Source: an uncultured Bacteroidaceae bacterium (GTDB taxonomy: Bacteria > Bacillota > Clostridia > Christensenellales > CAG-917). From it: a stretch of 46,523 bases of DNA. Where the stretch lies: contig CAYIYN010000001.1 in assembly GCA_964367645.1 (NCBI GenBank), positions 1 to 46,523 on the forward strand, written 5' to 3'. The notes below the pieces were generated by a model. It was not told where the DNA came from and ran no database searches. It was given only the letters and a program-made list of their open reading frames with translations. Below, in pieces: positions 5,718 to 37,590 of this stretch. The position numbers were made by a program, and so were the translations under genes. Every line of letters begins with the position of its first letter. Position 1 is the stretch's first letter.

Positions 5718-5730
5718 TTTTTATTATAAT

Positions 5731-5882: not shown

Positions 5883-5912
5883 AAAAGCACCTTTTTCAAG
5901 GTGCTTTTGCTT
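5883..5912. terminator. bidirectional rho-independent terminator between convergent spmB and the XRE-cupin gene
   Basis: Hairpin AAAAGCACC-tttttcaa-GGTGCTTTT, flanked by an A-run on the left and a T-run on the right. Confidence 0.7.
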
Positions 5913-5946
5913 CGGTTTAAGACAAGAAAACTATGTGATATTTGTT

Positions 5947-6498: not shown

Positions 6499-6515
6499 AA
6501 ACCCTCCTTCGGGCT

Positions 6516-6713: not shown

Positions 6714-6772
6714 ATTTACCTCCGTGGCGGCTAGCCGCCGATTATTATTTATTTTGTTTTTACAAATGCTTA

Positions 6773-7831: not shown

Positions 7832-7834
7832 ATA

Positions 7835-8959: not shown

Positions 8960-8988
8960 AATTTAGCCTCCAAAAATAGCTGTATTTT

Positions 8989-9017
8989 ATTATATCATTC
9001 AGCCTTGCTTTTTTCAA
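8989..9017 (-). promoter_or_regulatory. putative sigma-A promoter of the SPFH/zinc-ribbon operon
   Basis: On the minus strand: TTGAAA (-35), a 17-nt spacer, then TGaTATAAT (extended -10). It ends about 30 nt upstream of the ATG at 8959. Confidence 0.5.
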
Positions 9018-9047
9018 GCCAATTCTAAATTATCAATATATCTTCAT

Positions 9048-10094: not shown

Positions 10095-10200
10095 ATTAAT
10101 TTTTTTAGTTTTTGGTCGAGTACGATCAAAATGTTGTATATTTTCTTTTTGAATGGGATAAGTGCGCCTTTTTTAGCGGCTTATTCTTACCTCTGCCGTC

Positions 10201-10228
10201 AAGTGGAGATGCTTCCGCATCTCCACTT
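10201..10228 (-). terminator. 12-bp perfect stem-loop 35 nt downstream of the giant gene stop (putative terminator or 3' stabiliser)
   Basis: AAGTGGAGATGC-ttcc-GCATCTCCACTT. No clear U-tract follows on the minus strand, so intrinsic termination is uncertain. Confidence 0.5.
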
Positions 10229-10262
10229 GTTCAGATTATTCCTTTTTGAACGATTGAGGAAT

Positions 10263-16200: not shown

Positions 16201-16899
16201 TCAAGCACAGCATAGACCGCTTCGCCAATGGTTTCCGTTACGATTGAACCGTCCTCGTTGTACTGCAATGCCGCAGTATAAGCAGGCATAAGTTGGTAAA
16301 CGTTTTCGTCATCATTGAGCAACTCGTTGCCTTCCGCATCACTGCCAAGCGTAGGATTGCCCTGCAATCTCGCTTTGAGCATATCGCCTTCGTCGTTTGT
16401 TGCGTATGTTCCAAACGTGTATGTGCCGCCCGTCAGGAAACGTATCCTCACCAAGTCGGGCAGAGAAGGATTGTATTTGCTTGAAGCGGTGTTGATGTCA
16501 ATCATCAACGTTTTCTGCTCATAACTGACTTCTTGTCCCGCAGGAGCGGTGTTGACGTAGGCGTATATATTGCTCAGTGCATAATCGTTTGTGATATACA
16601 CAGGAATTGCATACAGCACCACGTTGAGCGCGTAGCCGTAGACGTTTCCTGCAAAGTAACGACCGCTGCTATCCAGTGTCGCCGCCGTATAGTTGACCGC
16701 GGAGGCGTCCCAAATGATGGCAGTGCCGCCCAAATAGTCCTGATCTCCGAGAGTGGTCGTGCCTACGCTGTCCAGTTGGTTGCGAGTCCAGGTTACTTTG
16801 GCTTTTTGCGGGAATATGTTTCCGTTTTCAAGCATGTATTCGTTCAAAGTGCCGCTATAGCCGTTGCTTGTTGTCGCCCAGCGTCTGCCGGGATCGGTG
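10263..16899 (-). other. C-terminal ~2,200-aa array of Ig-like (Big_4-style) beta-sandwich repeats of the giant lipoprotein
   Basis: At least a dozen occurrences of '[LF]P..(A/T)(T/K)V.....(D)G......V.W[DN]'. Examples are 'LPTYATVKLTDYDTEKSLEGVLGWVN', 'WPTTATVNFTSGTVAYNVSVEWND', 'LPETGTMTIDGNDETIGLDWNV', 'LPIALDAKLADGTVKTFLVQWP' and 'FPNSGTVTLVGGDTVSVPITWDF'. The start boundary is approximate. Confidence 0.5.
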
Positions 16900-19800
16900 A
16901 CGACGATTTCTTCGGGCGCTTCAACCTGACCGTTCATAAGTTCCGCTGTTTCCGCTTCCAAGAAGCCGAGCATAGGATCCTTTATTGAAGTATTGCTGTT
17001 GGCATACGGGGTGATTCTCAGCGAGAGCCAGTCAAACGAGCCGTCGTCTTTGGTTGTGTAATGCGGACTTGTCCCGCTCGACCAAGACAACTCATCGTCA
17101 TAGCCGTTGCCGTTTGCGTAATACTGGAAGCCTTCCGAGCGGTAAATTGCACTTGTGTTACCGACAACGTAAGTTTTTCCGAGGTTATTGATTGTGGTGC
17201 TATTTTTGCATTCATATCTCTGCGTTATCGCGCTGCGGTAGAAGTTCATCGCCGCGCCGGGACCTGCCTTTTCGCAGTTTATGTACAATTCTATTGCCTG
17301 AATGCCCTTGCTCATCGTATATCCGCTAAGGCCGTAATCCGCGGCGTTTGGCATAAGGTCGATATAGATATTTGCCGTAGGATTGCAAGCCGTTGCGGTT
17401 GCAAACGGTAGAGGCAGAATTGTCGCAACGAGTTTGGACAAGTTTTGAGTGGTGTTAGACGCTAGGAATGTTGCAAGTCCCGCGAGGTTGGTACCTGTAA
17501 GTGTTGTGATTAGGTCTTCTAGCAGCCAACTGTAAATGGTTGCCGGCAAGCTGCGCACGTAAGGCTCCATAAGGTTGACACGCACAGAAGTCGGTTGATT
17601 GTTGGTTAGCGACTGATCGATTTGTTCGAACAAATTGTAAAGTTCATTGGTTGCATGTTCACCGTTCAGCGCATAGTTGTTAAACTCATATGCACGACGA
17701 GATGTCAAGCCGTCACCATAAAGTTGACCAACCGCACCGGCATTATAAGCACTTGCGTTGGCTAGCTTTACCATATCGATGAAGTAGTTCGTTTCCTGCT
17801 GGTTTTGGTCGATTCCGCCGTCGGTAGTTCCTTCCATCTTGTTCTGGAACAGACCGAGAACCGTGCAGTACAAGAACACGAGCAATTCGTTAAACGCGTC
17901 TTTGTTGAATTCAACCTGCACCGAGATAAACCTCGTGTCATCGGCTCGTCCGGCTGGTATTGCACTCATTCCTGCATAGTAAGGAATATATCCGTTGGAG
18001 TTGAACAAATTCAAACTCAAGCCTTCGACAAGACCGACCAATTCAAGAGGATATTTGTATGCAGAATAATCCGCTGCCGTCCCTGCTTCTGCAGTTTTTT
18101 CCTTATCTGCAGTGGTCATTGCTTCGCTCGCAGTGTCCGCAGTGGGATATGCATAAGTCGCTGTGTCACCGTCGCCGGTCTTCAGCAGTCCGATGAACGG
18201 AGAGCCGTCGTCGTTTTGAAGCGCGATACCGCCTACGGTGTCATTGATGATGCCGTTTATGAAGTCGGAGCCGATGTCCAAATTCTTCAAATACAAGCTG
18301 TTGTTGCTGAATCCGATGCCGATCTGTAGATTGTTACCTTCGCCGGTTTGACGGTTTGGATGGACGGCATCTAGGAACAGATAAATTCTGTAACCGTTTG
18401 TTCCGCTACCCCATTTTTGGTTGGCTCGTACACCGGTAAGCGTTGCTTTTGTATAGACGTTTTCGGTTTCAACATAGGTTTCAGCACCGCCGCCGGAGTT
18501 ATAACCGACTGCTCCCGTCCACACCTTTCTGTCGATGTCAATTTTCAGTGCGGGGTTAATGCTGTCGATGATATTTTGAATAAGCGACGAGGTACCTGCC
18601 GACTTGGAATAGGTCACGCCGACATAGCCGTAAGAAACCGTGTCCACCAAATGTTCGATGTCCAGAGTCTTTTTGCCGATTGCTACGCTCAAGTCTTTGA
18701 TGTCAACCGCCAAAACAGTGCCTCTGCTGTCCAAGACAGCGTTGATACCAAGATTGTTTATTGCAGTCTTATCAGTGGTGTTACCCGGTACCAAATCGTA
18801 GTTTAGCACCAGCGCAACAGACTGAATGGGAGGCATAGTGATCCCTAGCGTTGACAAATCCAAGCCCAAAATTCCAAGCAAGACGTCAAGCATGCTGCGT
18901 TCCATCTTAATTGCAAGCCTGCCGGATTCGAGTTCGATTTCCAGGAATATTGCCATCGCTGCCGCTATTGCAGTTTCGTCCTCTGTGGAGGATGCGCTCG
19001 CATTCACGCCTCCTGCAGTCAAAGCGTCCGAAGTCGAACCCGCATTAACGTCCACTGTTGCCTGTTTGCCGCCTAATATGCCCGCAAAGCCCTGAAGTTT
19101 AATCTTGCCGAGTCCAAGGCCGCTGGCGTCGACATAAAGCGCGTCGGAGAACGTTGTTCCGTTCGGGCTAAGTTTATAGATGTTGTTGGTCTTTTCAAGT
19201 CTTGAGGAGCCAAGATAGTAGGCTGACAAGAACTTCTCGTTGGAAAGTGCACCGATGGTTATATCCAAAGCAAAGTCGCTGTAGATGATACCGCTGATGC
19301 CGTATGCCAAAATTGCAGGCAGGTTGATGTCTGCTTTCAAAGCAATATCAATGACGAATGTTTGCGAAGGCAATGTAATGCCAAAACTGGACTTATAGTT
19401 GCCGTTTGCGTCTTCAACATACTCATCTTCCACCAGCGAATAGCGCGTGCCGTAATACTTGCCGCTAAGCACTTTCTTGAATGTGCCGCTGCTGTTTGCG
19501 GTTCCGTTTGCGTCATATCTTTGTCCGGTGTAACGTGTGTCCTCATACTTGAAATAGGACTTTCCGGCAACGTACGAAGTATCGGTAGTAACGACGTAGT
19601 CGCTTCCGTTATATTCGCTGACGCCTGCTATGTTGCGATATGTTGTACTGTTTGGATCCTTTTCAGAATCAGACAATTCCGTCCATGTGCCGTAGCGCTC
19701 CGCAAATGTGAGCGCAACGTAGGCATTCTGACCGTTCTTTTCAAGTTCTGTAAGAGCGGTATAGCCGTTAATAAGGTCAACACCGCCAAGCAGTCCGCCA

Positions 19801-22800
19801 AGCAGTCCGAGAGCCCAGTTGATAAAGGTTTCATTAAATCCTTCGTCATAGGCACCGAGTCCTGAAGAAGTTATTGTAAGAGAAAGATTAAGACCTACTC
19901 CTATGTTATCAAGGCCGATAGCACCTGTTTCAATGTTATAGACTTCCGAGTATGCGATGACTTTATCGCCCGTTTCAGACACTATGTAGCTGTCTTCTTG
20001 ATATTTGTAATCGCCTTCTAAAGCAGATACAAAATTAAAGCCCGTGCCGACTGCCGCCGATTCAAGTTGCGCGTCGGTGCGTTTAACATACAAATCTCCG
20101 GACTGGATATACTTTCCTCTTTCCGTTGCACCTGCAGCCACAATGTTATAGCGTTGTCCGCTGTATTCTTCACCGCTTTCAAGGCTAACAAATCCTCCGA
20201 GAATGTGGTTGTATCTTGTGAGTCCGGCATGCGTCGCCGCGTTGTAATTTTCATGCAATTTTGCAAGATAGTCGCCGCTCTTGTGAGCGTTTATCCCTAA
20301 CTCCATGACATCAATCGAACCGTACAGACCTTCTGTGAACTTGGCAGCAATGCTAAGATGCGTTGTGCGGTCGTCAGTGCCGTATTCGTTGGGCACATAT
20401 CCGAAACTCTCGATGAACACGTCGCCGAGGTTGGGGAGAAGGTCATGCAATTCGTCACCGCGTGCCGCATAAATTCTGTTTGCGATGGCGTTGATTGTTG
20501 CAAGAGATAACTGCAGTGAGAAGTACTGAGGATTGATGATTGCCGCCAGGTACGCCTTGTCGTGCAGCGTAATATTGCCTGCATTCTCAATGGACGCGGC
20601 ATACGCTTCGCTTTCGCCCGTTGCCGGTTCGTGTCCAAGGAATCCGCCGAGAGCGTCCTCCAATATGGAACTTAGTCCCAGTCCTCCGATAGAAATCTTT
20701 GCTGTGCTGCCAAGCAGAGCCGTGCCGTCGATATAAATATTGTCGTTGTATAGATACACTGCAAGAAGCGCCTGTTCGTTAAGTACTCCCGCATCGTCAT
20801 ATTGAATGATTTCAAGTGCAATCACCGTCTGGGTGAAATCTACAAAATCAAGGAATGCGTTGATGTTGAGTCTTAAGAAAGGCCCGATCGCGTTGCCGAT
20901 TTCATCGGTTATCCTTGCGCGGAAAATAGAGCCGGTGTAGTCGCCGGTGCTGTCAATAAGCCCTAGAACAAGTCCGATTAGTTCCGATAAGTCGACCACG
21001 TTGGCATCGTTTGTTGTGTCATCACTGCCATAGAGGCTGATGTTAAGTCCGATGTCAAGCGACAAAGTGGACTGTTTGAAGTCAGCATAATCGGTAATCG
21101 GTGTGTCTTCCTCGTCAATATATACGCCAACGCTGTTTGTTGCAACCGTAAGTTTGTCCTTGTTTAACCACAAACTGAGGTTTCCGATTCCAAGTCTTAA
21201 CGCAAGGTCGCCTATCTTGAGATATTTGCCCGTTGCGCTTTCGGAGAAGCCAATACCGCTTGCATTTACATCGTATCTGTTGCCTGCCCATTCGGGATAA
21301 GCAAAGTCAATCAGTGCATACTCGGTGCTGGACAACATCATATAAGCACTTGTTGAAGTAAGATCGGTACGAGTTGTGCTTATGTAGCCGTTGCCATCGC
21401 TGTCGATGTCGAACGTGACGCCGCTCCAATCCGTTTCCGCCCACTCGTTATAAGTTGCTTTGAGCAGATACTCGGGTTTGTCATATGCTTCAGCCGTTAC
21501 GATATACTGGCCGCTTTCCGACACGGTGAACGTGCTGTCGCCACTGAGTGCGTATCTTGTAACGCCCATTCCTGCCGTCACAGAACCATAAATAAGCGAA
21601 TAATTATTTCCGCCCGTAGTTATGCCACGGAGAACGTATTCGCCGCTTGTGCCTTCTGCTCTTGCATAGCCTGTCGCGTCGGCAACAATATAAGTGGTAC
21701 CGGTCCAGTCTTCGCCGTAAGTACCCTCATATTCGGCAAGTGTGATAAATTCTTCATAACCTGCCGCAAATCCAAGGTTAACGATAATGGAGGGCTGTCC
21801 GCCGCCGAGGTTGATGACCACGCCGGAGGTATCCATGTCGTTGGTTATCTTGAGTTTGGGTAGATATTGAGCGATGCTTTCCATTTCGGGAGAAAGCATT
21901 GAGATGAGGTCGCCGAAAAGGTCTGCATTAAGACCCACTGCGACGATATCGTTGGCAACCAACAGTTGTCCCAAGATAATATTCAAAATATCCCAAATGT
22001 TTTCGGGGATAATGCCGGTATTTGTGCCTTCCGGAGCCGCTGCGATGGCTTCTGCCGACGCAGTGTCGGTTTCACCGCCAAGTCCGCTAAGGTCGATTCC
22101 TTCGATTTTAAGTTTTCCAAAGAAGTCCCCGAAGCCTACTACTCTGCCAATATCGCCAAGATTGAGATAGAGATTGAGCAGACCTTCGTCCGTAATTTGA
22201 GCCCAAATTTCTACACAAGCAATATTATCCGCACCGTGGAAGTTGGTATTGTAGGTGAACTTGATGTATGCTTCCAGTCCACGGAGCATGTCAAACACGC
22301 CTGCGCCGCCGGATATGCCTTCAATAAGATTGCCAATGTCGAGTTTAACTTTGAGGTCAAGCGTGCCGCCGATTACGCTTGTGAATTCAGTGTTCGATGT
22401 CGAAATCGACGCCAAGATGAATTCAAAATAAGAGTAGAGGTCGGTGTCAATAAATTTGGACATCTGTTTCGTCCAGTTGATGACGTCGCTGAGTTCAAGG
22501 TCGACATCAAGCGACAATCCGATTTCAGCAGTTTCAAGATCTCCAAGCAATTCCACTATATCAAGGTCACCGCCGTTGATAAGGTTGTTCAGGTTCAAAC
22601 TCATAACACGGGTGTAGTTGGAGAAGTCCCTGTTTGGTTTATAGTAAGCCTTGTCAATGCTTAGCGATGCAAAGTCGGTGACCTTTGTGAAGTTGGACAC
22701 GTCTGTTGAGTAAGGCATTGCATTGATGCCGTCATTGAGCACATACAAATCGCCCTTGACTTCGGGGTCCCAAATAGGCGCGCCGTATTCGTCAAACAGA

Positions 22801-31800: not shown

Positions 31801-34800
31801 AAATCAATCTTGAGTGCCACTTCGGCGAAATCGATGTCCAAAGACAGCTCCATGCCGTAGTCGGGCAACCTTTCGATGGCCGACGCAATATCGCTGTTAT
31901 CAGTGCCTTCAGTTGAGGTCAAGTTAATGATTAACCCGATAATCGACATGATAACTTGCTGTGTGACAAGCAGAGAAATCTTGTCGTTTGCAAGAGCAAG
32001 GAGAATTTCAAATGCCTCTTGTTCTTCGCCTTCGGAGGCGGCAAGAGCCTCACCGTCATCCTCGCTGCTTCCAAAACCTTCAAGCAGACCTTGTATCGAG
32101 CCGATAAGTAGGCTTGCAAACTGGGTGTCGTGGATAACGAAGTCCTTTTCGGACAGAATGCCCATATCAACCCAAATGTCGGAGCCGTCCATATAGACGC
32201 CAAGCATGGGTTCGCCTTTGACAACGTTGTATAGTTCAAACACAATTTGAGTGCTTTCCGGGTTCTCGAGCGAAAGGTTGGCGCCCAAAACCAATTGAAT
32301 ATCGAAAAGTATGTCTTCGGTAATTTCAACGCCGAATGCCAGCATGATTTCTTGCGCGAAGATGCTGATTATATCGTTAATAGGAAGTTCGCCGTCTTCC
32401 CAAACTCCCGTCGTCTGATTGAGTTGAAGTTTCAATTCAAGAGTGAGGTCAAGGCTCAAATCAGAGAAGTTATCAAAGCCGGTGTATGCGCTGTCGATAA
32501 CAGGGAAGTAAGGATTTACCACGGTCTTGTTCTTTGCAAAGCCGATGCTGAGTCCTGTCAGTTCAATCCCTAGTCTGAGAGGATCGATGCCGACTGAAAT
32601 GCCCAGTCCGTAGCCGTTCATGCCGTAGTCCAGTCTAAGATAACTGTTTTCTGGGTTTAGTTGGACAAATTGTTCGACATCAATTTGCTTTCCTGCAAGC
32701 AGTCCGACGATCATGCCTATCATGCCCGACGCAAGGTAAACGGTCAGGCTTTCGCTGTCCATCGTTAGACCGTGGATTGCTCCGCCGATAACTGTTGTAA
32801 TCGTGTCGAGAATACTAGGCTCGGTTTCTGCCGCCGCTTCTGCTTCGGAATCGCTTGCCGCACCCGCATCGGATTCCCCGTTTGCGCCAACGCCCGAGAG
32901 CAATGCCGCCAAATTCATGCCGGCAAGTTTGAGATGTACGTCGTCTATTATGTCAACGTTGCCGTCGATATAAAGAGTGCTTGTAGCAAGTTCCGTAACT
33001 GCGTTAGGATTGTCGCAAAGCAGAGTTATCGCAAGCATACGCGCCGCTTGAGCGTGAGCCTGAGTATCCGTTACCGCTTCATAATTGCCGTTGTAAATTT
33101 CGATGATAATGTCGGAGTGCGACAGCAGATAATTTATATCACCGATTTTGTTGGGATTGAACCGTAAGACTGCGGCAATGCGGAAACCAAGTTGCTGAAT
33201 AATGTCATAGTCGATGTCAAACGCAATCAGCAGTCTGTCTAACAGACTGACAACACTTTCGTTGGTTGTTGCGGGATCCAAGAAAAGATTTACCCAGTCG
33301 CCCACAGGCCATTCCGAATTATCGGTGTTGAAAGCCTCGAGGTCAATGGTGCCGGTCAACTCCACAAAAACCTGTTCGAGTCCTAAGGAAATATCGCCGA
33401 ATTCGTCAAAACTCAGCAGACTCATCAGAGTGTAGCCCGTGTCGGAACCGTCGAACACAAACTGTTCTTTTCCGTTTATGGGATTGATTGACTTTTTGTT
33501 GTGGTAACTGTCGATAGAAAGACTAAGTCCGTCAACATAAATTTGAACTTTGCCGGTTTCGTTGTTATCTGCGTCTTTGACTACAACTCCGAGGTCAAGC
33601 AAGTTTTTGCTTTCTGCCCAGGACAGTTCAAGCCACACGTCGAGTCCGACGGCGTTAATACCCACTGTATCCCAAAGGAACTCGGCAAGACCTTGAACAA
33701 GTTCTATGCGGAAGCTTTCTGTGGATAATTTTGCCGCAAGTTCAAATGCGATATCAAAATTCGCGGAGTCAAACTGCCAGTCGGCTGCCGCGCTTGCTTC
33801 GTTTTTGGGATTGACATAGATGCCTTCATAATCCCACTTAAACGTGCCGTTTTCGTCTTCAACGTACGCTTCTACGGCTTCGTATCTGGTTCCGATATAA
33901 GCATCGCCTTCGACGATGGCGGTATAACCCGTGGCGACATATTTATACGTGCCGCTTGCGGATTCAACATAATTGTTGCCTACTTTTTCATATCGGACGC
34001 CAATGTATGATTCTCCTGCGGCTATCTCTATGTATTCATAAACCGGTTTGTATGCTCCTTCGTCAGACTGCTTATAGCGAACACCCTTGCTGTAACGAGG
34101 TCCGTCATAATAAGCGGCGTTGTTAGAATCCATTTGCTCTGCCGTCAGTTCAGAATAACTGTTGAGAAGGAGAGGCAGAATAATTTCAAACAAATCCAGT
34201 TCAAGCGCCACTTTATCAATACCGAAATTGGTGGCGTCGAGATAGATTTTGCCGTCCAGATAGTAGATGCCGATAAGTAATTTTTGGTCCGGAGTCCCCC
34301 TATCTTTGCTTATTTCGATGAGCAGTTCCGATTCGTTGCCGGCAGTATAGACGGCATCCGTGCGTTTAAGCAGCACGTCGAAAAGTGGTTTGAGGTCAAG
34401 TGAGGCCTCAACACCAAGATTGTAGTCAAGGTTGAGCGTTTCTCCGAATATGAGGTCGCCGCCGCCGCCCAAGGGCGTCGTGCCTGCGTTGATTGTGCCC
34501 TCTATGCCGAGGTTTAGAGCAAGCCAAACGTACGGTTCGGCAAACACGTCAACAAATTGATATTCACTGTCCGCAGGGTCGAGGTTTGAGCCTGCGGGCA
34601 CTTCATTGATGCCTGCGTTAAGATTGCCCAGCGCGATGTCGAGTTCAAAATTGCCGCCTATGCCTGCATAAACAAGAAGTTCAAGCTCCGTCAAATTTAA
34701 GCCGTCGGCGAGCGTCACGCGGATACCACCGTTGAATGGTTCGTCTTCAATGCCGATTGCAAATTCTGCGGGCAGTCCGCCGATAAGTGTGAATAATTTT

Positions 34801-37421
34801 TTTATGAGGTTGGTTGCGAGATAAATTTCAAGATAATTGTCGCTCAGCTGTATTCCTTGAATAAGCGCGGCGATGATACCGATGATGTCGGTGTCGCCAT
34901 CTGCGGCGGAAATCGCTTCGCCGCCTGCCGCAACGGCCTCTGACGTACCGCTGAGGAAAGGCTTGATGTCAACCATTACGTTGAGGCCACCCAAAATGTC
35001 ATTGCGCGTGTGCAAATACACAACCAAATTGTCCAGCCAAATTTCAATGGCGGACTCTGTTGCGCCTTGTTTATAGAGCGACAAGTGCACTTTTGATTTG
35101 ATGAGGCTATCTGTGCCTTCGGACAAGTCGAGGTTGCCTTCGACTTCAAGTACAAAGGTGGAATCGACCGTTTCGAGGAACTGAATTAGAGCCTGGAAGA
35201 GCAACGAGCCGTCGCCCATGCCGTATTCTAACGAAGTGAAATCGCCTTCAAGAGCGTAAAGCCCGACTTCGGCTTTCATCGCGACGTAAACTGAACTGAT
35301 TGCTCCCAAAATCGATTCGCCCGTAAGACCTTCGGAAAAATCCATAGGAGCAAATTCCCTTGCGTGTGCGGAAAGTCCCGGTCCGTCCTTGAATTGATTG
35401 ATGCGGTTGTTGAAATATTCCGCATTTGAAAGTGTTCCGAAACGCAATCCGAGTTTCAGACCGACGCCCAAAACTCTTGCGCTTTCAACTGTGCCGCCGC
35501 TTGAAGAGCCAAGCGCGATGTCAACGTCGAGTTCTTTGTTTTCGCCAAATCCGAGATTCCTAAAGACAACGGATGCCGCAGTAACAGGTATTGTGCCTCC
35601 TGCCATGTCGCCGGTGAAGATAAGTCCCCACAAAAAGTCGAGGATTTCCTGCGTCAGCGAAAGGTTCAAACTTTGAATGTTGAAGATATTGCCGTCTTTG
35701 ACAAGTTCGCACTGTGCAAGGATTGCGCTGATCATTCCCATCGTGTCGGTTATAGCGGCAGAATTCCCTTCGGGATCGGACACCAAACTCTGCACGATTT
35801 CGCCGTTATCAAGTTTGTCGGTGACTGCAGTGTACATATCGACCGAAGTCTGCGCTTCGGCTTCGGCTTCGCCGCTGAGCAATCCGCTGACCAAATCTCT
35901 CACCGTTCCGCCGAGTGCTCCCTTTATGACGTCGACGAGTTTGTAAATCAGTTCGCTTATGAGGGCGTTCATATTGACGTCTTCGATGACGAATTTACCG
36001 GTGCCGACTATACCTGACAAATCGATATAAACCGACTCCTGACTGCCAACGTAATAAATTCCGGCTCTAAGTCCTCCGTTATCACCGAGGATTTCCACAA
36101 GGAGATTGGTTTTCGCGTTGTCATGAGTGTTGATAACGCCGTTGATGTTTACGGTCAAACTGTACGTATCACCCGACAAGCCTATCGTCTTTTGCATTAG
36201 AGGGCTGTCAGGCGTGATAACGTCTTGCAACAGACCGGTCAGCAAAGTGCCGAAAGCGCCCACTGCGCCGCCGATTGTAATTTCCTTGTTCGCTGTGTCT
36301 ATTGCAAGGCGCAGAGAAAGATCGAGTGTGAGAATTGAATAATCTTTTGCCGCCTGAATGTCTATGCCGCGCTCTTGAATGGCGGTTGCGACATCAAGCT
36401 CGGGTTCAATGCCCGTTGAGAAGTTTTTAAATCCGAGAGAAATGCCGACTTCGTGGCTGTAATTGCCCAAATCGGTCTTCTTGCCGAATGAGTTTAGAGA
36501 AATGTCAAAGCCGAGATTAAGCGCAGTCATTGCGCCATTTGTGATATCGACTACGACTTCGATTGCCAAATCTTGAAGAGAACTGAATTTATTGAGGTTA
36601 AGACCGAGGAGATTGAAAAGTAAATCGACTATAGCAGTTTGATCCGCCAGCAAATCGCCGACAATGCCGGAAACGATGCCGAGCAGGCTGCCCAAAGACA
36701 TAGGCATGACAACGCGCTCCTTGCCGCCGCCTAAGTCAACAACGTAGGGATCTTTTATGAGCATTGTGCACAAAAGCGCACTCAAAGGTTGATCGCCGAG
36801 CAAATCGAGAAGATCTCCAGCGTTCATACTTAGCAAATCGGTGAAAATCAGTTGAGAAATAGTGCCGCCGAGAAGACCGCTGATGATGTCCGCCGCCCCG
36901 ACAAAGAGTTTCGTGAAATCGATATCGTCGGTTGAAACGACGTAAGCGCCTTTTTTAAGACCGGTACAATCCATCACCAGTTGGCTGTCGTAATAATAAA
37001 CACCGACCAGCAACTGCTGCGTATTGGAGAAAGCGCCCGACGCGGTGTCGTAATTGATTTTTATAAGTTCAAACAAAAACTCCGAATTTTCGTCGTTTTC
37101 AACGTCGAATGACCCTGCAAGACGTACGGTGAATTCATTTCCCGTTTCGTCTTTCAAATAGTCAAGGTACATCGTGACGTCGAAGTTTATGAACTTGTCG
37201 TCATTCCTTCCCGCCACTCCGAAACAGGCATTTTGGAGTTTATCCCAAGCAACCAACGGCGTTATGTAGGAAGGATCGTCTTCAATATAGTTTGGCGGTG
37301 TCGGGGGCACGATCGGCTTGTTGCCCGATACATCGCCGACATTGGACGTGGAACATGCGACGAAAACGCCGAGTAACGACACGACCAAGATCAAAAGCAG
37401 CGCTAATTTCAATCTCTTCAT
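10263..37421 (-). CDS. giant modular surface lipoprotein (9,052 aa), function unknown
   Basis: One stop-free frame runs for 27.2 kb. I chose the ATG at 37421 over the ORF-track start at 37478 because AGGAGGAAATT precedes it directly and the product then begins with a signal peptide, MKRLKLALLLILVVSLLGVFVAC. The protein contains repeated modules, acidic linkers, Tyr-rich inserts and a C-terminal Ig-like array (see findings). Confidence 0.9.
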   Translation of the reverse strand: MKRLKLALLLILVVSLLGVFVACSTSNVGDVSGNKPIVPPTPPNYIEDDPSYITPLVAWDKLQNACFGVAGRNDDKFINFDVTMYLDYLKDETGNEFTVRLAGSFDVENDENSEFLFELIKINYDTASGAFSNTQQLLVGVYYYDSQLVMDCTGLKKGAYVVSTDDIDFTKLFVGAADIISGLLGGTISQLIFTDLLSMNAGDLLDLLGDQPLSALLCTMLIKDPYVVDLGGGKERVVMPMSLGSLLGIVSGIVGDLLADQTAIVDLLFNLLGLNLNKFSSLQDLAIEVVVDITNGAMTALNLGFDISLNSFGKKTDLGNYSHEVGISLGFKNFSTGIEPELDVATAIQERGIDIQAAKDYSILTLDLSLRLAIDTANKEITIGGAVGAFGTLLTGLLQDVITPDSPLMQKTIGLSGDTYSLTVNINGVINTHDNAKTNLLVEILGDNGGLRAGIYYVGSQESVYIDLSGIVGTGKFVIEDVNMNALISELIYKLVDVIKGALGGTVRDLVSGLLSGEAEAEAQTSVDMYTAVTDKLDNGEIVQSLVSDPEGNSAAITDTMGMISAILAQCELVKDGNIFNIQSLNLSLTQEILDFLWGLIFTGDMAGGTIPVTAASVVFRNLGFGENKELDVDIALGSSSGGTVESARVLGVGLKLGLRFGTLSNAEYFNNRINQFKDGPGLSAHAREFAPMDFSEGLTGESILGAISSVYVAMKAEVGLYALEGDFTSLEYGMGDGSLLFQALIQFLETVDSTFVLEVEGNLDLSEGTDSLIKSKVHLSLYKQGATESAIEIWLDNLVVYLHTRNDILGGLNVMVDIKPFLSGTSEAVAAGGEAISAADGDTDIIGIIAALIQGIQLSDNYLEIYLATNLIKKLFTLIGGLPAEFAIGIEDEPFNGGIRVTLADGLNLTELELLVYAGIGGNFELDIALGNLNAGINEVPAGSNLDPADSEYQFVDVFAEPYVWLALNLGIEGTINAGTTPLGGGGDLIFGETLNLDYNLGVEASLDLKPLFDVLLKRTDAVYTAGNESELLIEISKDRGTPDQKLLIGIYYLDGKIYLDATNFGIDKVALELDLFEIILPLLLNSYSELTAEQMDSNNAAYYDGPRYSKGVRYKQSDEGAYKPVYEYIEIAAGESYIGVRYEKVGNNYVESASGTYKYVATGYTAIVEGDAYIGTRYEAVEAYVEDENGTFKWDYEGIYVNPKNEASAAADWQFDSANFDIAFELAAKLSTESFRIELVQGLAEFLWDTVGINAVGLDVWLELSWAESKNLLDLGVVVKDADNNETGKVQIYVDGLSLSIDSYHNKKSINPINGKEQFVFDGSDTGYTLMSLLSFDEFGDISLGLEQVFVELTGTIDLEAFNTDNSEWPVGDWVNLFLDPATTNESVVSLLDRLLIAFDIDYDIIQQLGFRIAAVLRFNPNKIGDINYLLSHSDIIIEIYNGNYEAVTDTQAHAQAARMLAITLLCDNPNAVTELATSTLYIDGNVDIIDDVHLKLAGMNLAALLSGVGANGESDAGAASDSEAEAAAETEPSILDTITTVIGGAIHGLTMDSESLTVYLASGMIGMIVGLLAGKQIDVEQFVQLNPENSYLRLDYGMNGYGLGISVGIDPLRLGIELTGLSIGFAKNKTVVNPYFPVIDSAYTGFDNFSDLSLDLTLELKLQLNQTTGVWEDGELPINDIISIFAQEIMLAFGVEITEDILFDIQLVLGANLSLENPESTQIVFELYNVVKGEPMLGVYMDGSDIWVDMGILSEKDFVIHDTQFASLLIGSIQGLLEGFGSSEDDGEALAASEGEEQEAFEILLALANDKISLLVTQQVIMSIIGLIINLTSTEGTDNSDIASAIERLPDYGMELSLDIDFAEVALKIDLASELINFGVYILQPKISANRNSKVESMISEARYKWSLDGNYSVLTVGDKAEGESQFNIAHAYEKNASVYTKTADTEYLVDKVYYKYTGAQEGDDRFQDYEDNKIVYFELEIAIEYGLDSTYILLDAASAALYDDADRYSKRVTDGVYVQDPNGLYIKDPIELGGLVDFIVGLDAVKGLVTGMEEGLVKNLLNALFQQLGLNIYLNDEMSDNFVLKLSGALDLEAIGFDDILQGKFDELEFSLELILAALDLGVELIFNPGEFTEAKLGIYLIEGEIFLDTSDLGGPQIKLDLNFLLGLIGVGSAEALTTADEEESASFDILGLLNVLIRRIILQVSPRYKGGGEFWYNNFDSIDILFYSDMLPAFIKFLLNIDFEMEGIDFDENQSGIFLKFNDADMDDKLSLGIKMVTATGYNVGLKLGLGLKLDIAKTDYEGIVDASELLHFVDITDYIVNIVGLINGDTADYYKPSAESYYTFLPNAEGAYMFDIASNAFRLIKADENIGEAQRYERHVVRNMAGALVYDSVPATQASPAVYSELTEINAIYEVVGSGAADSYKSRYFVISDTATQEIRVDIAARDYYVFSKNVQGTYTEDTILKRIFDASATISGVAADARYAISTAEKVYNYVESANGNFVFDASLDSYRAIAEGEVVSTQTYLRNVSLSGLSSDKLAYERYSTNYDSQNIKLSLNLGLSFDSKAIASNDRLGGLIENWLSDVLIAAKTTSVFGDTVLGRVSLKVDLAAVDIAALLGEDTFYVMTQDQIAAAADEDKFILEGGSYVAYDATRHASGVSNGTIAVYGKESKFVKFLENSDLDTIEIALELLELDENGEILLNSEGKPTIMAGIYLYRGMLYLDGTNLFDIAGNYSYVPNFTELLMRLITGEDATAEDSGEGASDNSALAASSADITVERDATLMLLYSDLGIQIVLMKSLIAMVLAVLLPDLGSVEEIFNVFDITLGFDSGRYEYEPFTDGLGTGVDEEAVIANIYEGTTYKVDTVTESAAGAYYKVTNGTDYYISIYDGTGAPAGATLYDVTFAATIEDDEAFTHAAVYYLQQDRVVTLSDGETAYQDVYGLVIPVFERYSYYDKITWSLNDTDGNYAVIGNWEGDEFADNAEFFLRSNYTLYIDDEGSLTGKSETNTTTYDVGTTYYIFYGCAYREIDHFADRAYGYELEYSGTNYRRLSPYTKIDEFYIGLDINVEDISLGIKLGGIALAFGASDKLIPDYVLNGVSRDNPEVVIPLMPFYESSVALNFSIELELGVTEGLLDIGTIFSKLLGDIEGIVIEMPETAKGYSSAHFRLDVSIILDMSKLTNSEISVEFFSITETGAEKLWIGLYYLQNIFYLDAAVLEMPKLSITSDLISGLIEQYLGDILVKDIYTENEIPSSADSEALSAASVVNSEFDVLLLISKRQLMVNIANKFIRMLIELLVEGLDLDDYISDQLIAGAGIQLNFNDGVDLVVEVTLGLEGDRYIEVTDRTQIQAKGVMEGVAVEGDYWFSSNNATGMYVFDAASGKYRAVAKGEVISGARFDRNELLNIGDIDANTTYFRRTSSDAGNLEATDAELNLLVAIRNLNISFMLEHNYTLTAEEIAEYQEITQIDRFMLTETIDITTSFKSGAENDIDLTEVLGYFFPEEDYDNLAAIISAMADGGGDVNRKIELVINVEIKFAALLNYFRQFDFNSGIGNINEDMSIMDIIEIFKNVIANIDSINIGDLLSYINASIIIQTTADRKFGNEYFEETHTLLGLYVVSGQFEKRSGAALEEIALEDRYDHYYENHTGEYFYNETTETYQPRYEGMDPLIDTFYSYDATYCYANPLGQYERVRGGLYIDLSYFSIPSIYINSYGLRDALASLLEGGISLGASESEALSVADDETASATALPLLSNEIAGYLTAFAWGIRITSMFIQVIVNPDYINQIIGLLMTGDSKLEFNYNFTKKPFVQINTDNATYFYKDYSQAEEDSLRVSNGSGPNLDELKVSEFRFEKVENDETGTYYIDSKGLYQLRSDLTAEQEAAYLISGKHFYTLSTYEAYIKVITGSGINDFHYQELTKATSIEKDNAEKCFVTFDKDGDNYTFNSEDNGAYIYVVNSYVLAETASSAQKEAALGDYAFYITTSGAGSYVNTGDGQYEYVSDTSPYTAIELYTFTRLNDEDMLVAQIDKTVRKPLITVQLYLWEYELGINIGSPEFGVQGYKYITKDEYETENGVAAPEYDLYIKAEDYLYGFIGGEETKNEWILNQTERTAYLNGAETDTGIKIVENYVNSDGSANNLRYMYYRGEYFAITVEDLYVFSGNEFVNVVSLFGGEGPTKVNFAADEMIDFTSGKNFANDPDCSNNPDFFLRVDIGESFDVYVRLTKAYLYEQEWYRNVYVKDTAENYERYGVDAEAVKYVRVTSENVLNVEYIDYASFEKSTQINGAEGTYYWNLVSRNFTLNTALENEPAATALSAEEIKSYVYDAWTRGYMSLSEYLYTYHYDVATYEEMNAILYATTLYSAYTEDEEGNYVWSDEERGFIEKPEGSVATTYRANSIEYVDSDDMYFISLTIRGGLYTTGYYDYVSVADYLDLLNAGREIPYTMASLINPLSPAYVAPEKRFTTNQGEYFQTSSDNFQYVLYTTGVETTLAEVLGGLLGDLDGVMVRIMESFTGEILFEIKINLAFKLNWTPGLSLEIYDLDLAIDMWRRENDATDQTDGTLTHFLGIYYTHDADTGIAGLCVDLEWIFGEGAKLAIDLSDYTIEELLAGLLAGDSEAILGGSSSEALTAASSESGGYVETAANPLLAGAYINILTRALAVQITKGFFELLLNALGVDLGSIELPNFMVKLKLNLAPWSVGFTLDVFTADGTQGVLDLTLVLQLFNGTEDSSVIDFGTIESFTAKDTTYKNITTIEQQPDVADNYINYYANFIRDDSVSYEDAYLKVGNAVNKGKLADGITDSGVVLADAVQVGPFVQKTDFKYYVKADEVYTETQFNEFKSEGIWMYRLPAISYVRVLDSALFDEYGAPIWDPEVKGDLYVLNDGINAMPYSTDVSNFTKVTDFASLSIDKAYYKPNRDFSNYTRVMSLNLNNLINGGDLDIVELLGDLETAEIGLSLDVDLELSDVINWTKQMSKFIDTDLYSYFEFILASISTSNTEFTSVIGGTLDLKVKLDIGNLIEGISGGAGVFDMLRGLEAYIKFTYNTNFHGADNIACVEIWAQITDEGLLNLYLNLGDIGRVVGFGDFFGKLKIEGIDLSGLGGETDTASAEAIAAAPEGTNTGIIPENIWDILNIILGQLLVANDIVAVGLNADLFGDLISMLSPEMESIAQYLPKLKITNDMDTSGVVINLGGGQPSIIVNLGFAAGYEEFITLAEYEGTYGEDWTGTTYIVADATGYARAEGTSGEYVLRGITTGGNNYSLIYGSVTAGMGVTRYALSGDSTFTVSESGQYIVTAEAYDKPEYLLKATYNEWAETDWSGVTFDIDSDGNGYISTTRTDLTSTSAYMMLSSTEYALIDFAYPEWAGNRYDVNASGIGFSESATGKYLKIGDLALRLGIGNLSLWLNKDKLTVATNSVGVYIDEEDTPITDYADFKQSTLSLDIGLNISLYGSDDTTNDANVVDLSELIGLVLGLIDSTGDYTGSIFRARITDEIGNAIGPFLRLNINAFLDFVDFTQTVIALEIIQYDDAGVLNEQALLAVYLYNDNIYIDGTALLGSTAKISIGGLGLSSILEDALGGFLGHEPATGESEAYAASIENAGNITLHDKAYLAAIINPQYFSLQLSLATINAIANRIYAARGDELHDLLPNLGDVFIESFGYVPNEYGTDDRTTHLSIAAKFTEGLYGSIDVMELGINAHKSGDYLAKLHENYNAATHAGLTRYNHILGGFVSLESGEEYSGQRYNIVAAGATERGKYIQSGDLYVKRTDAQLESAAVGTGFNFVSALEGDYKYQEDSYIVSETGDKVIAYSEVYNIETGAIGLDNIGVGLNLSLTITSSGLGAYDEGFNETFINWALGLLGGLLGGVDLINGYTALTELEKNGQNAYVALTFAERYGTWTELSDSEKDPNSTTYRNIAGVSEYNGSDYVVTTDTSYVAGKSYFKYEDTRYTGQRYDANGTANSSGTFKKVLSGKYYGTRYSLVEDEYVEDANGNYKSSFGITLPSQTFVIDIALKADINLPAILAYGISGIIYSDFALDITIGALSNEKFLSAYYLGSSRLEKTNNIYKLSPNGTTFSDALYVDASGLGLGKIKLQGFAGILGGKQATVDVNAGSTSDALTAGGVNASASSTEDETAIAAAMAIFLEIELESGRLAIKMERSMLDVLLGILGLDLSTLGITMPPIQSVALVLNYDLVPGNTTDKTAINNLGINAVLDSRGTVLAVDIKDLSVAIGKKTLDIEHLVDTVSYGYVGVTYSKSAGTSSLIQNIIDSINPALKIDIDRKVWTGAVGYNSGGGAETYVETENVYTKATLTGVRANQKWGSGTNGYRIYLFLDAVHPNRQTGEGNNLQIGIGFSNNSLYLKNLDIGSDFINGIINDTVGGIALQNDDGSPFIGLLKTGDGDTATYAYPTADTASEAMTTADKEKTAEAGTAADYSAYKYPLELVGLVEGLSLNLFNSNGYIPYYAGMSAIPAGRADDTRFISVQVEFNKDAFNELLVFLYCTVLGLFQNKMEGTTDGGIDQNQQETNYFIDMVKLANASAYNAGAVGQLYGDGLTSRRAYEFNNYALNGEHATNELYNLFEQIDQSLTNNQPTSVRVNLMEPYVRSLPATIYSWLLEDLITTLTGTNLAGLATFLASNTTQNLSKLVATILPLPFATATACNPTANIYIDLMPNAADYGLSGYTMSKGIQAIELYINCEKAGPGAAMNFYRSAITQRYECKNSTTINNLGKTYVVGNTSAIYRSEGFQYYANGNGYDDELSWSSGTSPHYTTKDDGSFDWLSLRITPYANSNTSIKDPMLGFLEAETAELMNGQVEAPEEIVVTDPGRRWATTSNGYSGTLNEYMLENGNIFPQKAKVTWTRNQLDSVGTTTLGDQDYLGGTAIIWDASAVNYTAATLDSSGRYFAGNVYGYALNVVLYAIPVYITNDYALSNIYAYVNTAPAGQEVSYEQKTLMIDINTASSKYNPSLPDLVRIRFLTGGTYTFGTYATNDEGDMLKARLQGNPTLGSDAEGNELLNDDENVYQLMPAYTAALQYNEDGSIVTETIGEAVYAVLDYSKLPTGRYAPAGTISWDYEGTLLRGTDDFSFGWAGGLYNVGFTYQWGGSNEIKDSVEVSVTGYDVNDSKITRLTKSDGTYLPNMESFDAFKLDSILSDGYSLADYVSSFTKMSGRYTSGKSFTDLSVKWDLTELYARLAAIAVEGNGYDYYKGIDVKVTAYVGGDIFNTVIIYDETGKAIAGLTGNLSTDSEYVSGNGNVAQPVTVRIYVAPRVFDSLENKSLVFDSYAFNEINDTSFALNAKVNFKNIDGLVTLSSGSLSIEAPYVLNSDGTTYSRATGLSSDNYTYQGFKGDGTLYAKLLIGTHTSGIQEVYVKINVTKMTATTTSVRVQKEATFNPKWYEYTWEEEGVEMNYNTLLVNYAEAGTTAHYMTPKWETIKYYSNSALTKPLENIYRAGTIYATVEADVLDTNGNPLGNVKTDTGYVSQRITLKLSVPAKSITKVYFYSGSGAEDLYGNGLINRMVEGNYVISDNELTNIANYTATGYAQFMSGGEAFNIMSDSYAENSDNYFNVAEWGDLRNGTVVVVELSDGSKEIAYVNAIETNTMAVSAAGGLSYVYMTIANQRIRIPLNLPNVSVTDITLDTTHRDGEGNLTGGTLTFDGNTLSSSVSYTGNQAAFTMEYNRLDSWVLPTYATVKLTDYDTEKSLEGVLGWVNNSAPTNAEIQNDANGDYVVRKLYFYDAALLRYPEGGLDVKIYLVTRSASGLKMKSMAPDVDSVEIDGFGTGGIALVSYSPFVEWIWPTTATVNFTSGTVAYNVSVEWNDTTLPGEQEIAAGQFTRIAYVGGNLAELEYTFQIVEDYILNFGGIQTATGYIYSLTADKFFEGLPETGTMTIDGNDETIGLDWNVDYDAAGYNGNVTVTVTATNGRTVDITVALDVAAVTVSGIVWENGNEIDPLGESSTAFGSGSNVSVALEGVETSVDGVKATYTLPADFYTNPGKYYGEAITLTVNLLYNTGTQSKAIAIDYEFTVLNKAISRIVNPLYRSIVVDPFMYSSFGSEQGGMNLPIALDAKLADGTVKTFLVQWPANSVIIAAGMVNPDNVLNFTYIYAAEDGAYYLVTDGDGTTIDFVAIEDYEEGAYEVGHSVARYSKGSTQPFTVPLTVLNRVVKSAQFSFDDFTLGSVTERYSTYVHTYGSTDSTKGNLVEIAYDNKTHLPISATVSNVYSFGDPDLPNKLRIKFAGSEEIKDYYITISIADIAEYLRSIDTSKDYATKATIRVYPTADMSVELFLTGNGKPMEIDFIFKAVNLNRYNSDVASPTMSFNDIRYSAANGKVFNVYSTEGGSDDAYFDGNYESDTTFYADGKFVTLSAWHSGHSLSDLSHVRWAGDSSRYLYKVLGNGTVDASGNVVTTLDSVSGEQVRDTSKTPYYYTYNTKSRTYKYVETLPVGYDATKYYVFVYTVSQSLSVDWDFTSLSYNYTGSDPVNGGSAYATAKITSPVNIVVGGATVANTSYTSVRVPVQITNSSISGISFTSENFADGANSSKMQMVGGVPTFTFDPFVDLDIFSEVNDFYKYFPNSGTVTLVGGDTVSVPITWDFGVAASAGSVSWEGGEYVIRAIIGGTTESVAEQKVECRFVVNSRKAQRVSTNGNESLEALTGYYDGVVASGQTYINPYEYLQSDMVLPDTLTVDTENGGAVTYSVSGDENYKLIWNFASFRPEYKGGVVYLQAFLVGADKTTQTFKVPFLVQKMIATSITTDFYLDEESNGTTLIAGSRNGSANSNYNSAISGGTAVTPYVISPLANKSYNLPQAYKVTFAISNPDIISAGVDMQNLEVGGWAATNVGTGWDESHRNSGINSRIFSYVTLSMPANFKVTVNECRNGTAPNKYNAGIQLGTGEKINIPFGITAVDMSGYSTTGLTSGTGGTTLTTKTANGAQIAWYGMAYAFDINETSNEPSKAIVSHAIVIASSSSTYTLPSQNNRKVIYVLTPVIGAVVDSTSAITDYISTFRPNGQKEGTQTTIIVARTAGLI
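16900..37352 (-). other. N-terminal ~6,800-aa region of divergent modules (protein-level repeats) of the giant lipoprotein
   Basis: 13 acidic linkers, at least 15 copies of the G-[IV]-Y-Y...Y-[IL]-D motif, and Tyr-rich inserts, all read from the translation. Boundaries are approximate. Confidence 0.6.
37353..37421 (-). other. lipoprotein (SPase II) signal peptide with lipobox F-V-A-C
   Basis: MKRLK (positive n-region), then LALLLILVVSLLGV (hydrophobic core), then FVA|C. The Cys codon TGT is at 37355..37353. A Ser/Thr/Pro-rich tether follows (STSNVGDVSGNKPIVPPTPPN). Confidence 0.8.
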
Positions 37422-37435
37422 AATTTCCTCCTGCT

Positions 37436-37454
37436 GCGCCTTACGCGTAAGCGC
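37436..37454 (-). promoter_or_regulatory. palindrome in the 5' UTR of the giant gene (possible operator or RNA hairpin)
   Basis: TTACGCGTAA (37441..37450) is a perfect 10-bp palindrome. It extends to GCGC(c)TTACGCGTAAGCGC and lies between the predicted -10 element and the SD. Confidence 0.35.
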
Positions 37455-37482
37455 ACGCCAGCACAGAATAATATACATTATG

Positions 37483-37511
37483 ATTTTATCGCCAAATAGT
37501 TATATTGTCAA
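37483..37511 (-). promoter_or_regulatory. putative sigma-A promoter of the giant gene
   Basis: On the minus strand: TTGACA (37511..37506), a 17-nt spacer, then TAAAAT (37488..37483). The -10 element ends about 60 nt upstream of the ATG at 37421. Confidence 0.6.
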
Positions 37512-37560: not shown

Positions 37561-37590
37561 CTAAAACCGCGCCTTAAATTGGGCGCGGTA
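37561..37590 (-). terminator. rho-independent terminator of the GH20 gene
   Basis: On the minus strand: ACCGCGCC-caatttaa-GGCGCGGT followed by TTTTAG. It lies about 55 nt downstream of the stop at 37645, which insulates the giant gene from upstream transcription. Confidence 0.7.

Follow-up and report, generated by a model that had tools for sequence, protein, structure and literature searches.

The stretch of 46,523 nucleotides (nt) at positions 1-46,523 of contig CAYIYN010000001.1 (assembly GCA_964367645.1, deposited as an uncultured Bacteroidaceae bacterium and placed by GTDB in the Christensenellales (CAG-917) of the Clostridia), referred to below as the window, carries on its minus strand a giant gene whose product is composed of a predicted lipoprotein signal peptide, 15 diverged copies of a large module joined by acidic linkers, and then a ~2,600-amino-acid (aa) non-repetitive C-terminal part. 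The interval 17200-37000, in which the original prediction had noticed a recurring sequence signature, lies within one minus-strand open reading frame (ORF) of 9,071 codons (10263..37478 according to the ORF list and its translation); aa positions throughout follow this listed ORF, with the lipobox cysteine at aa 42. The recurring signature is the most conserved β-hairpin of a previously undescribed extracellular domain, and the combination of repeat statistics, structure prediction and comparison with relatives described here provides a first outline of this domain and of the protein that it builds.

The signature (G-[IV]-Y-[YL]-x(2-6)-[IL]-[YFW]-[ILV]-D-x(3)-L-G) had been proposed to occur at least 15 times, a count that holds at the level of modules (15 by hidden Markov model, HMM) and not for the literal pattern, which has a single match. 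With a relaxed core, [GA][ILVA]Y[YLMV]x(2-14)[ILVM][YFWCVM][ILVM]D, 8 matches were obtained vs. 0.07 expected (maximum 1 in 300 shuffles), and an HMM seeded on these 8 sites recovered unseeded units and converged on 12 units plus a weak one. In a leave-one-out test, all 13 of these C-terminal-half (C-half) units were detected by a profile of the other 12, with E-values from 6e-12 to 2e-4. The stretch after each linker is also conserved; therefore, the repeat unit is the whole linker-to-linker segment. A 247-position full-module HMM, iterated from the compact copy M6 over the family and trained on 724 instances from relatives, mapped 15 modules over aa 97-6397 (nt 18288-37190; Table 1), with a core of ~250 aa and a length of 270-890 aa where inserts are present. 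The Y...Y-x-D signature is recognisable in ~12-13 copies and degenerate in M3, M12 (which also has the weakest C-half) and M15. All previously quoted peptides were found in one minus-strand frame with coordinates off by at most one base (LAVYLYNDNIYIDGT is located at 20721-20765, not 20722-20766), and 10 of the 11 represent module ends (of M1, M2, M4, M6-M9, M11, M13 and M14). The remaining one, NIYIDLMPNAADYG (NIYIDL..., aa ~6701-6714), is a false positive from a non-module region (hhalign probability 0.4%).

Copies of the module share 13-34% identity with the first unit, and no tandem or dispersed DNA repeats were detected beyond chance-sized matches of 26-30 nt; therefore, the duplication is ancient and not an assembly artefact. 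Both the low identity and the divergence at the DNA level had been anticipated, and together with the leave-one-out and family HMM results they bear out the idea of one ancient, heavily diverged structural unit duplicated many times. On the two counts on which this idea could have fallen (a lack of internal periodicity, or correspondence to an already described family), the outcome favours the finding.

Table 1. Features of the giant gene and its surroundings (iE, family full-module HMM; LOO, leave-one-out E-value with the C-half profile of the other 12 units; two iE values refer to the two parts of a split module).
Feature	Coordinates (window unless stated)	Strand	aa	Signature or description	Basis
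Terminator-like hairpin	37566-37589			after the GH20 gene, precedes the promoter-like site	
Sigma-70-like promoter (putative)	37483..37511	(-)		TTGACA-17-TAAAAT, just upstream of the giant gene	consensus scan, 11/12 matches
Giant gene	10263..37421	(-)	9,052 from this start	likely start ATG 37419-37421	
Signal peptide with lipobox (predicted)	37353..37421	(-)	Cys = 42	MKRLKLALLLILVVSLLGVFVA-C	sequence
Pro-rich tether	37191..37352	(-)	43-96	from the putatively lipidated Cys to the first module	sequence
M1	36864..37190	(-)	97-205	C-half only; VGVYYYDSQLVMD	HMM positions 152-245, iE 2e-15; LOO 1.4e-10
M2	35925..36638	(-)	281-518	AGIYYVGSQESVYID	iE 2e-29; LOO 4.5e-10
M3	34968..35753	(-)	576-837	degenerate AIEIWLDNLVVYLH	iE 9e-22; LOO 2.2e-4
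M4	34164..34892	(-)	863-1105	IGIYYLDGKIYLD	iE 1e-35; LOO 6e-12
M5	32892..33734	(-)	1249-1529	MLAITLLCDN...STLYID; Tyr-rich segment before (aa 1137-1199)	iE 6e-18; LOO 1e-5
M6	32076..32813	(-)	1556-1801	most compact copy, the one modelled; LGVYMDGSDIWVD	iE 3e-55
M7	30903..31997	(-)	1828-2192	~130-aa insert; LGIYLIEGEIFLD	iE 1e-22
M8	29148..30845	(-)	2212-2777	split by Tyr-rich insert, 2212-2339 / 2527-2777; AGIYLYRGMLYLD	iE 9e-10, 3e-13
M9	27675..29045	(-)	2812-3268	insert; IGLYYLQNIFYLD	iE 8e-31
M10	26211..27575	(-)	3302-3756	insert; reduced signature RGGLYIDLSYF	iE 1e-10; LOO 8e-9 (C-terminal part)
M11	23547..26129	(-)	3784-4644	split by ~530-aa Tyr-rich insert, 3784-3900 / 4428-4644; LGIYYTHDADTGIAGLCVD	iE 4e-8, 2e-15
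M12	22080..23435	(-)	4682-5133	N-half 4682-4788, C-half 4974-5133; degenerate LLNLYLNLGD	iE 7e-8, 7e-4
M13	20634..22004	(-)	5159-5615	insert; LAVYLYNDNIYID	iE 1e-30
M14	19071..20546	(-)	5645-6136	SAYYLG...ALYVD	iE 4e-3 (N-half), 7e-10 (C-half)
M15	18288..18956	(-)	6175-6397	degenerate LQIGIGFSNNSLYLKNLD; followed by the last acidic linker (aa ~6435-6473)	iE 6e-6
Tyr-rich element site	33880-34070		1137-1199		
Tyr-rich element site	30275-30370		2371-2401		
Tyr-rich element site	29825-29915		2522-2551		
Tyr-rich element site	27200-27290		3397-3426		
Conserved post-module region	16989..18158	(-)	6441-6830	non-module; contains NIYIDLMPNAADYG	
C-terminal region	10266..16988	(-)	6831-9071	non-repetitive, Thr/Ser/Val/Tyr-rich	one weak Big_4 (Ig-like) match
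Mem_trans gene	9048-10094	(-)			
Mem_trans gene	L003 32120-33154				
Mem_trans gene	L004 26884-27828				
Mem_trans gene	L006 20646-21566				

The fold of the module was predicted by AlphaFold2 on M6 (aa 1552-1812), using an alignment of 42 orthologous and paralogous modules. The resulting model (mean predicted local distance difference test score, pLDDT, of 82.1; predicted template-modelling score, pTM, of 0.73) contains 11 strands, mostly long (9-14 residues), and 4 helices in the order H1, β1, β2, H2, β3, β4, β5, loop, β6, H3, β7-β11, H4, and depicts the module as an antiparallel β-meander with a hydrophobic face that would be covered by four amphipathic helices. Strand positions occupied to 80-95% by L/I/V alternate with positions dominated by D/E/S/N/T/G over the 724 instances, in which the helices are likewise amphipathic. 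A low-confidence loop between β5 and β6 (residues 96-121 of the M6 model) is the site of the inserts in the long modules. The motif corresponds to the β9-turn-β10 hairpin, with the family form L-[LI]-G-[IL]-Y-[YL]-x-[GN]-G-x-L-Y-[IL]-D, in which the two tyrosines are conserved in 507/650 and 513/648 instances and the aspartate in 458/643. Its surroundings in the family profile are those described originally, namely alternating hydrophobic/polar strands before the motif and, after it, K-[IV]-K-[IV] (β11), the Leu-rich helix H4 and an acidic linker.

Mean-field direct coupling analysis (DCA) on 506 near-complete instances, with the threshold set at the maximum of three column-shuffled controls (0.98), yielded nine pairs exceeding every such control (M6 model numbering): 131-178 and 128-179 (β6-β7), 180-196 and 185-191 (β7-β8), 197-209, 197-206 and 195-209 (β8-β9), 220-228 (β10-β11) and 89-240 (β5-H4), with more β7-β8 pairs in the same register (i + j = 376). 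These pairs agree with the AlphaFold topology and are supportive of it rather than proof, as column shuffling leaves phylogeny uncontrolled. The pair 89-240 brings the C-terminal helix H4 onto the sheet of the N-terminal half, a contact that would close the unit into one globular domain. Internal duplication within the module was considered and rejected, the two halves not being homologous by hhalign. When two consecutive modules were modelled together (M3-M4, alignment of 20 sequences), both came out with the same order of elements, at low overall confidence (pLDDT 60.9, pTM 0.39, linker pLDDT 33-45) and with no confident inter-module packing. This model is compatible with independent modules on flexible linkers and is too weak to exclude packing between them.

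The earlier statement that the unit could not be assigned to a named domain is upheld in all libraries searched (Pfam, NCBIfam, PDB-sequence profiles and Foldseek against PDB and BFVD). Pfam-A 2025 contains no family matching aa 1-5000, the only match being Big_4 (E 0.023) in the C-terminal part; NCBIfam r20 gave only a chance blaL match (E 0.047), and 42 module instances scanned singly in Pfam gave six unrelated lone chance matches (E 0.025-0.1). Among PDB sequences, the first module profile matched one designed β-barrel protein (E 0.68) and the 42-sequence profile had no match at E ≤ 10. Foldseek searches with the M6 model had a best E-value of 0.43 in PDB (template-modelling (TM) score ≤ 0.25) and of 0.21 in BFVD. 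The non-significant tails of the Foldseek results include JHBP, SPLUNC1, LolB, OrfX2, LprF and LptD, alongside porins and OspA; the lipid-binding proteins among them constitute a lead for one of the alternatives discussed below, not evidence of membership. With no neighbour in PDB or BFVD, the modelled module is a candidate new fold, and our literature search, which included work on giant proteins, found no description of the module family.

The mature giant protein is ~9,030 aa long, with a computed mass of ~984 kDa and pI of 4.2 (1,249 acidic vs. 537 basic residues), and contains 18 cysteines. The signal peptide of a bacterial lipoprotein is expected to end in a lipobox of the form [LVI..][ASTVI][GAS]-C, with no charged residue immediately ahead of it, and MKRLKLALLLILVVSLLGVFVA-C fits this rule of the PROSITE PS51257 type. 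An N-terminus of the L-[VIA]-A-C-[NGT] type is found in every listed family member that begins with Met and is thus probably N-terminally complete. The lipobox signal peptide is the sole predicted membrane anchor: no second transmembrane-like segment was found in the giant protein, and its C-terminus (...TTIIVARTAGLI) does not show the LPXTG arrangement, in which the motif precedes a hydrophobic segment and a basic tail. A lone internal LPETG (aa 7923-7927, window 13708-13722), far from the C-terminus and with no hydrophobic tail after it, most likely arose by chance rather than as a signal for sortase.

Downstream of M15, the conserved post-module region is kept in P0003, P0004, P0009, P0012, P0040 and P0041; it was considered as a 16th module and rejected (hhalign probability 0.4% vs. 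the module profile). The C-terminal 2,600 aa show no internal repeats by self-BLAST and no match in PDB, are collinear in the closest relatives and have otherwise only same-family fragments as homologues, some with Big_4; relatives also carry precomputed Big_4 matches (PF07532).

The 14 linkers located between modules are 20-35 aa long, rich in Ala/Glu/Ser/Asp, acidic and predicted to be disordered. A linker core, [SG]-E-A-[LVIM]-[TAS]-[AT]-A-D, is present in 91 of 484 family linkers, compared with 13.7 (maximum 25) after per-linker shuffling; therefore, it is constrained beyond composition. At least 11 of the 14 linkers in the giant protein contain a version of this core (aa ~847, 1808, 2197, 2787, 3283, 3761, 4655, 5139, 5622, 6148 and 6452; window 18100-36000, minus strand), which could be a site of cleavage or of glycosylation or could form a capping helix. 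In five long modules the N-half and C-half are split or stretched by inserts in the loop between strands 5 and 6, which are Tyr-rich (density up to 12-16%). A second repeat, a ~30-aa Tyr-rich element (consensus ESANGAYVFDAASGAYRAIAAGETYEGQRY), occurs in at least 5 copies inside the inserts. It has no counterpart in Pfam, and with 13 copies in 7 proteins its family is small.

The giant gene is a 27-kb ORF without interruption. Its listed start, ATG 37478, is probably wrong: this ATG overlaps or adjoins the -10 element of a promoter-like site (itself a pattern match), and the ATG at 37421 is preceded by a ribosome-binding site (AGGAGG, 7 nt upstream) and matches the position of the orthologue N-termini (MKKLK...); the latter ATG is likely the true start. 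The genes on both flanks are ordinary chromosomal genes. One flank encodes KsgA, a radical-SAM protein, TatD, MetRS, Gate-domain proteins, a cupin regulator, a zinc-ribbon protein, an SPFH protein and the Mem_trans transporter; the other encodes a GH20 hexosaminidase, an HGSNAT-type acyltransferase, a bPH protein, a GH127-like protein and phosphoglycerate mutase. No tRNAs were found in the window. The gene for the SPFH/Band-7 protein with C-terminal double zinc ribbons and, after it, that for a 352-aa zinc-ribbon protein (6773-8959, minus strand) form a pair also observed downstream in L003 and L006. The TatD ORF (1820-2698, minus strand, TTG start at 2698) overlaps the 3' end of the MetRS gene (2593-4524, minus strand) by ~100 nt; its real start is probably ~2590, as the Pfam match begins only at residue 38.

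With three modules as query, a word-indexed search covering 5.8 billion proteins returned only 2 relatives, both fragments of giant orthologues. A profile search of 1.84 billion cluster representatives (clusters at 50% identity) yielded 125 of them at E ≤ 1e-3, 50 at E ≤ 1e-10 and 21 at E ≤ 1e-30; the exhaustive search used the 13 C-half units with linkers trimmed. Many of these relatives are 5,600-7,900 aa long with 10-14 matched stretches; they are named in their sources only as 'hypothetical protein', apart from one 'carboxypeptidase-like regulatory domain-containing protein', and their named source organisms are exclusively metagenome-assembled genomes (MAGs) of Clostridia/Eubacteriales. 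The closest MetRS relatives, too, are all 'Clostridia bacterium' MAGs. The gene order around P0004 (7,286 aa) is identical to that in the window and part of it is found around P0017 and P0013, including the Mem_trans gene directly downstream; the divergent P0024 has another gene context and itself carries CarboxypepD_reg, SdrD_B and Big_4 matches. Compared with the syntenic locus L003, the giant protein is ~31% identical vs. 40-76% for 14 neighbours; compared with L004, it is undetected by tblastn while MetRS is 72% identical. The giant gene evolves fastest among its neighbours.

Several further observations concern individual loci. The Mem_trans gene (PF03547, auxin-efflux-carrier family) is situated directly downstream and in the same orientation in 4 of the 5 loci examined, an adjacency that may reflect a functional link or merely inherited synteny. 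A PIG-L gene (LmbE-like GlcNAc deacetylase) is located directly upstream of the giant gene in L003 (8783-9577) and L005 (8879-9703), two loci of which one is otherwise different in context; the window has no such gene in this place. In combination with the GH20, HGSNAT and GH127-like genes close by, the PIG-L gene hints at glycan processing around the locus. In one metagenome (L001), the orthologous giant is split into an ORF of 1,353 aa (1745-5806) and an ORF of >3,119 aa (5887-15243), be it through a frameshift, an error in sequencing or a genuine disruption. Among GTDB representatives there is only one close relative (89% identity), on the 4.6-kb contig L002 (CAYJCS010000123.1) from a MAG labelled 'uncultured Bacteroidaceae bacterium'; this contig is probably mis-binned, since MetRS and the named family members point to Clostridia.

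Among known systems, Ebh of Staphylococcus aureus, SasG/Aap and the serine-rich repeat adhesins are built from small known domains of ~50-130 aa (FIVAR-GA, G5-E, Ig-like), usually anchored through a C-terminal LPXTG or transmembrane segment. The giant protein shares with them its megadalton size, Sec signal, tandem array of one domain, putative extended surface structure, distinct terminal region, rapid divergence and very few cysteines, and differs from them in its undescribed ~250-aa alpha/beta unit, its N-terminal lipobox as sole predicted anchor and its acidic, motif-bearing linkers. Giant proteins of Clostridia are known to contain Pfam-recognised repeats (RCC1, Listeria-Bacteroides repeat, YG repeat, dockerin, LRR) (bioRxiv 10.1101/2023.11.21.568195). 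Those proteins resemble the one described here in their very large size, their origin in uncultured gut Clostridia, their repeated beta-rich domains and a presumed role in surface binding, whereas the 6,400-aa repeat region analyzed here has no Pfam match.

We have weighed several other explanations of this architecture. The repeats might represent a chance motif, a mis-assembled repeat or a pseudogene, given the uncultured source organism and the split orthologue in L001, but the probability of any of these is practically negligible in view of the long uninterrupted ORF, the absence of DNA repeats, the collinear orthologues at syntenic positions in several independent assemblies, the promoter-like and ribosome-binding sites and the strong repeat statistics (motif enrichment and leave-one-out test). 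A continuous β-solenoid fibre or an extended groove, with short strand-helix units stacked along 6,400 residues, had been offered as a speculation; the molecule is indeed long and repetitive, strands alternate between hydrophobic and polar positions throughout, and the low-confidence two-module model leaves inter-module contact possible. Nevertheless, this picture is largely contradicted, the solenoid more firmly than the groove, and very improbable: the unit is a ~250-aa domain, the period is ~250-890 aa vs. 18-30 aa per solenoid coil, pairing is in antiparallel hairpins (i + j constant) rather than parallel stacks, the C-terminal helix contacts the N-half sheet of its own module, disordered acidic linkers intervene between modules, and Foldseek returned no beta-helix, beta-taco or AsmA/TamB/VPS13-type match. 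TamB, YhdP, VPS13 and ATG2 resemble the giant protein in their great length, alternating hydrophobic/polar strands, N-terminal anchoring in the cytoplasmic membrane and envelope-spanning character, but they form one continuous groove free of disordered linkers, as opposed to closed domains bounded by linkers; the AsmA, DUF490 (TamB) and Chorein_N models gave no Pfam match even at E ≤ 0.1, and the sole positive support for a groove comes from the non-significant Foldseek tails with lipid-binding half-barrel proteins.

The same tails are the starting point for another explanation, in which modules are half-barrels of the TULIP, LolA/LolB or LprG kind for hydrophobic ligands (lipid, glycolipid or lipoprotein-acyl) and their array stores, shuttles or relays lipids across the envelope, as a monoderm counterpart of bridge-like lipid transfer proteins with discrete cups in place of one groove. 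JHBP, SPLUNC1 and LolB recur in the tails of the M6 model, as do OrfX2 (on top), LolB, LprF and LptD in those of the two-module model, and the lone match of the PDB profile is the designed β-barrel protein. Furthermore, the modules are unusually rich in Leu/Ile/Val/Phe, the protein is predicted to be anchored to the membrane via lipid, and nine long strands with a strictly hydrophobic face have only ~52 helical residues as cover, which by our own estimate suggests a strongly curled sheet. TULIP/LolB/LprG domains are similar in size (~180-250 aa) and in having a curved antiparallel sheet around helices, and OrfX2 of Clostridium botulinum comes from a Clostridium and comprises several such domains in tandem. 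We nevertheless regard this explanation as unlikely. The order of helices and strands differs, there is no significant match of structure, sequence or profile (JHBP, SPLUNC1, LolB, OrfX2 and LprF have a Foldseek probability of 0.01-0.35 and TM of 0.06-0.29, with OrfX2 at 0.06 for both from a model with pLDDT 61), none of the 42 module instances matches the Pfam lipid-transfer families (P47/OrfX, BPI, SMP, LolA, AsmA, DUF490), and the 42-sequence profile finds nothing in PDB; in addition, amphipathic helices covary with strands as in ordinary core packing, and the flexible linkers offer no obvious path for hand-over. Alternatively, the giant could be a polyprotein in which the linker core (S-E-A-[LVIM]-[TS]-A-A-D) is a processing site, releasing ~15 paralogous units of ~30-90 kDa that form a surface layer or are shed. 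The enrichment of this core over shuffled linkers, its presence in most linkers here and the self-contained look of modules with their own N- and C-terminal helices would fit, but no protease gene is conserved beside the giant gene, the motif is absent or different in distant members that keep the modules (e.g., P0005, P0016), only the first unit would remain anchored, and the motif may just as well serve in glycosylation or as a short capping helix, all of which leaves processing a slim chance. A combined version, with a new fold containing a curled-sheet hydrophobic pocket and ~1-MDa chains of ~15 lipid or glycolipid cups, possibly released or regulated by cleavage at S-E-A-x-T-A-A-D linkers, is in our estimate quite unlikely; if it were true, uncultured Clostridia would possess a hitherto unrecognised system for handling lipids in the envelope or for coating the surface.

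From the observed architecture we infer, with about an even chance of being right, that the modules, spaced by acidic linkers, give this giant surface protein an extended stalk or coat. Sec export and lipidation would tether the protein to the outer face of the cytoplasmic membrane, and globular modules, acting as structural spacers and not as enzymes, on flexible and mutually repelling acidic linkers would make up a long stalk or brush that crosses the cell wall and extends past it. The Tyr-rich inserts and the C-terminal region, which is distinct and partly Ig-like, would thereby be offered for binding to a partner outside the cell (glycans, the surface of a host or other cells); a role as a protective polyanionic coat would be an alternative. 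Divergence faster than that of the syntenic neighbours, the low number of cysteines, the lipobox and the β-sandwich matches in relatives are all in keeping with a surface role. Several points weigh against this interpretation. The terms 'stalk' and 'adhesin' derive from the architecture and from analogy; the searches recognised no domain for cell-wall binding or sorting in the giant protein, and a binding role of the C-terminal region, with its one weak Ig-like match, is a guess. A Leu-rich alpha/beta unit of 250 aa in ~15 copies is more elaborate than typical spacers (Ig-like, ~90 aa) and may hold a hydrophobic cavity, while a pure spacer role leaves the conserved linker motif without explanation. 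Moreover, the two-module model is of low confidence, given its 20-sequence alignment, so that modules may still pack against each other.

Overall, giant surface proteins as such are known, and the novelty lies in a domain absent from curated libraries and solved structures. It represents a new domain family that can be deposited in Pfam/InterPro and would annotate ~6,400 presently blank residues per protein; the M6 model, having no PDB or BFVD neighbour, is a candidate for experimental structure determination, and the linker motif and Tyr-rich inserts provide testable functional elements. The family (125 clusters, 724 module instances) is conserved on the chromosomes of a whole group of uncultured Clostridia. 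An investment of 27 kb per genome in a gene that evolves faster than its neighbours suggests a major part in meeting the environment, and if its binding partner were known, the ecology of this lineage, so far represented only by metagenomes, would be easier to understand.

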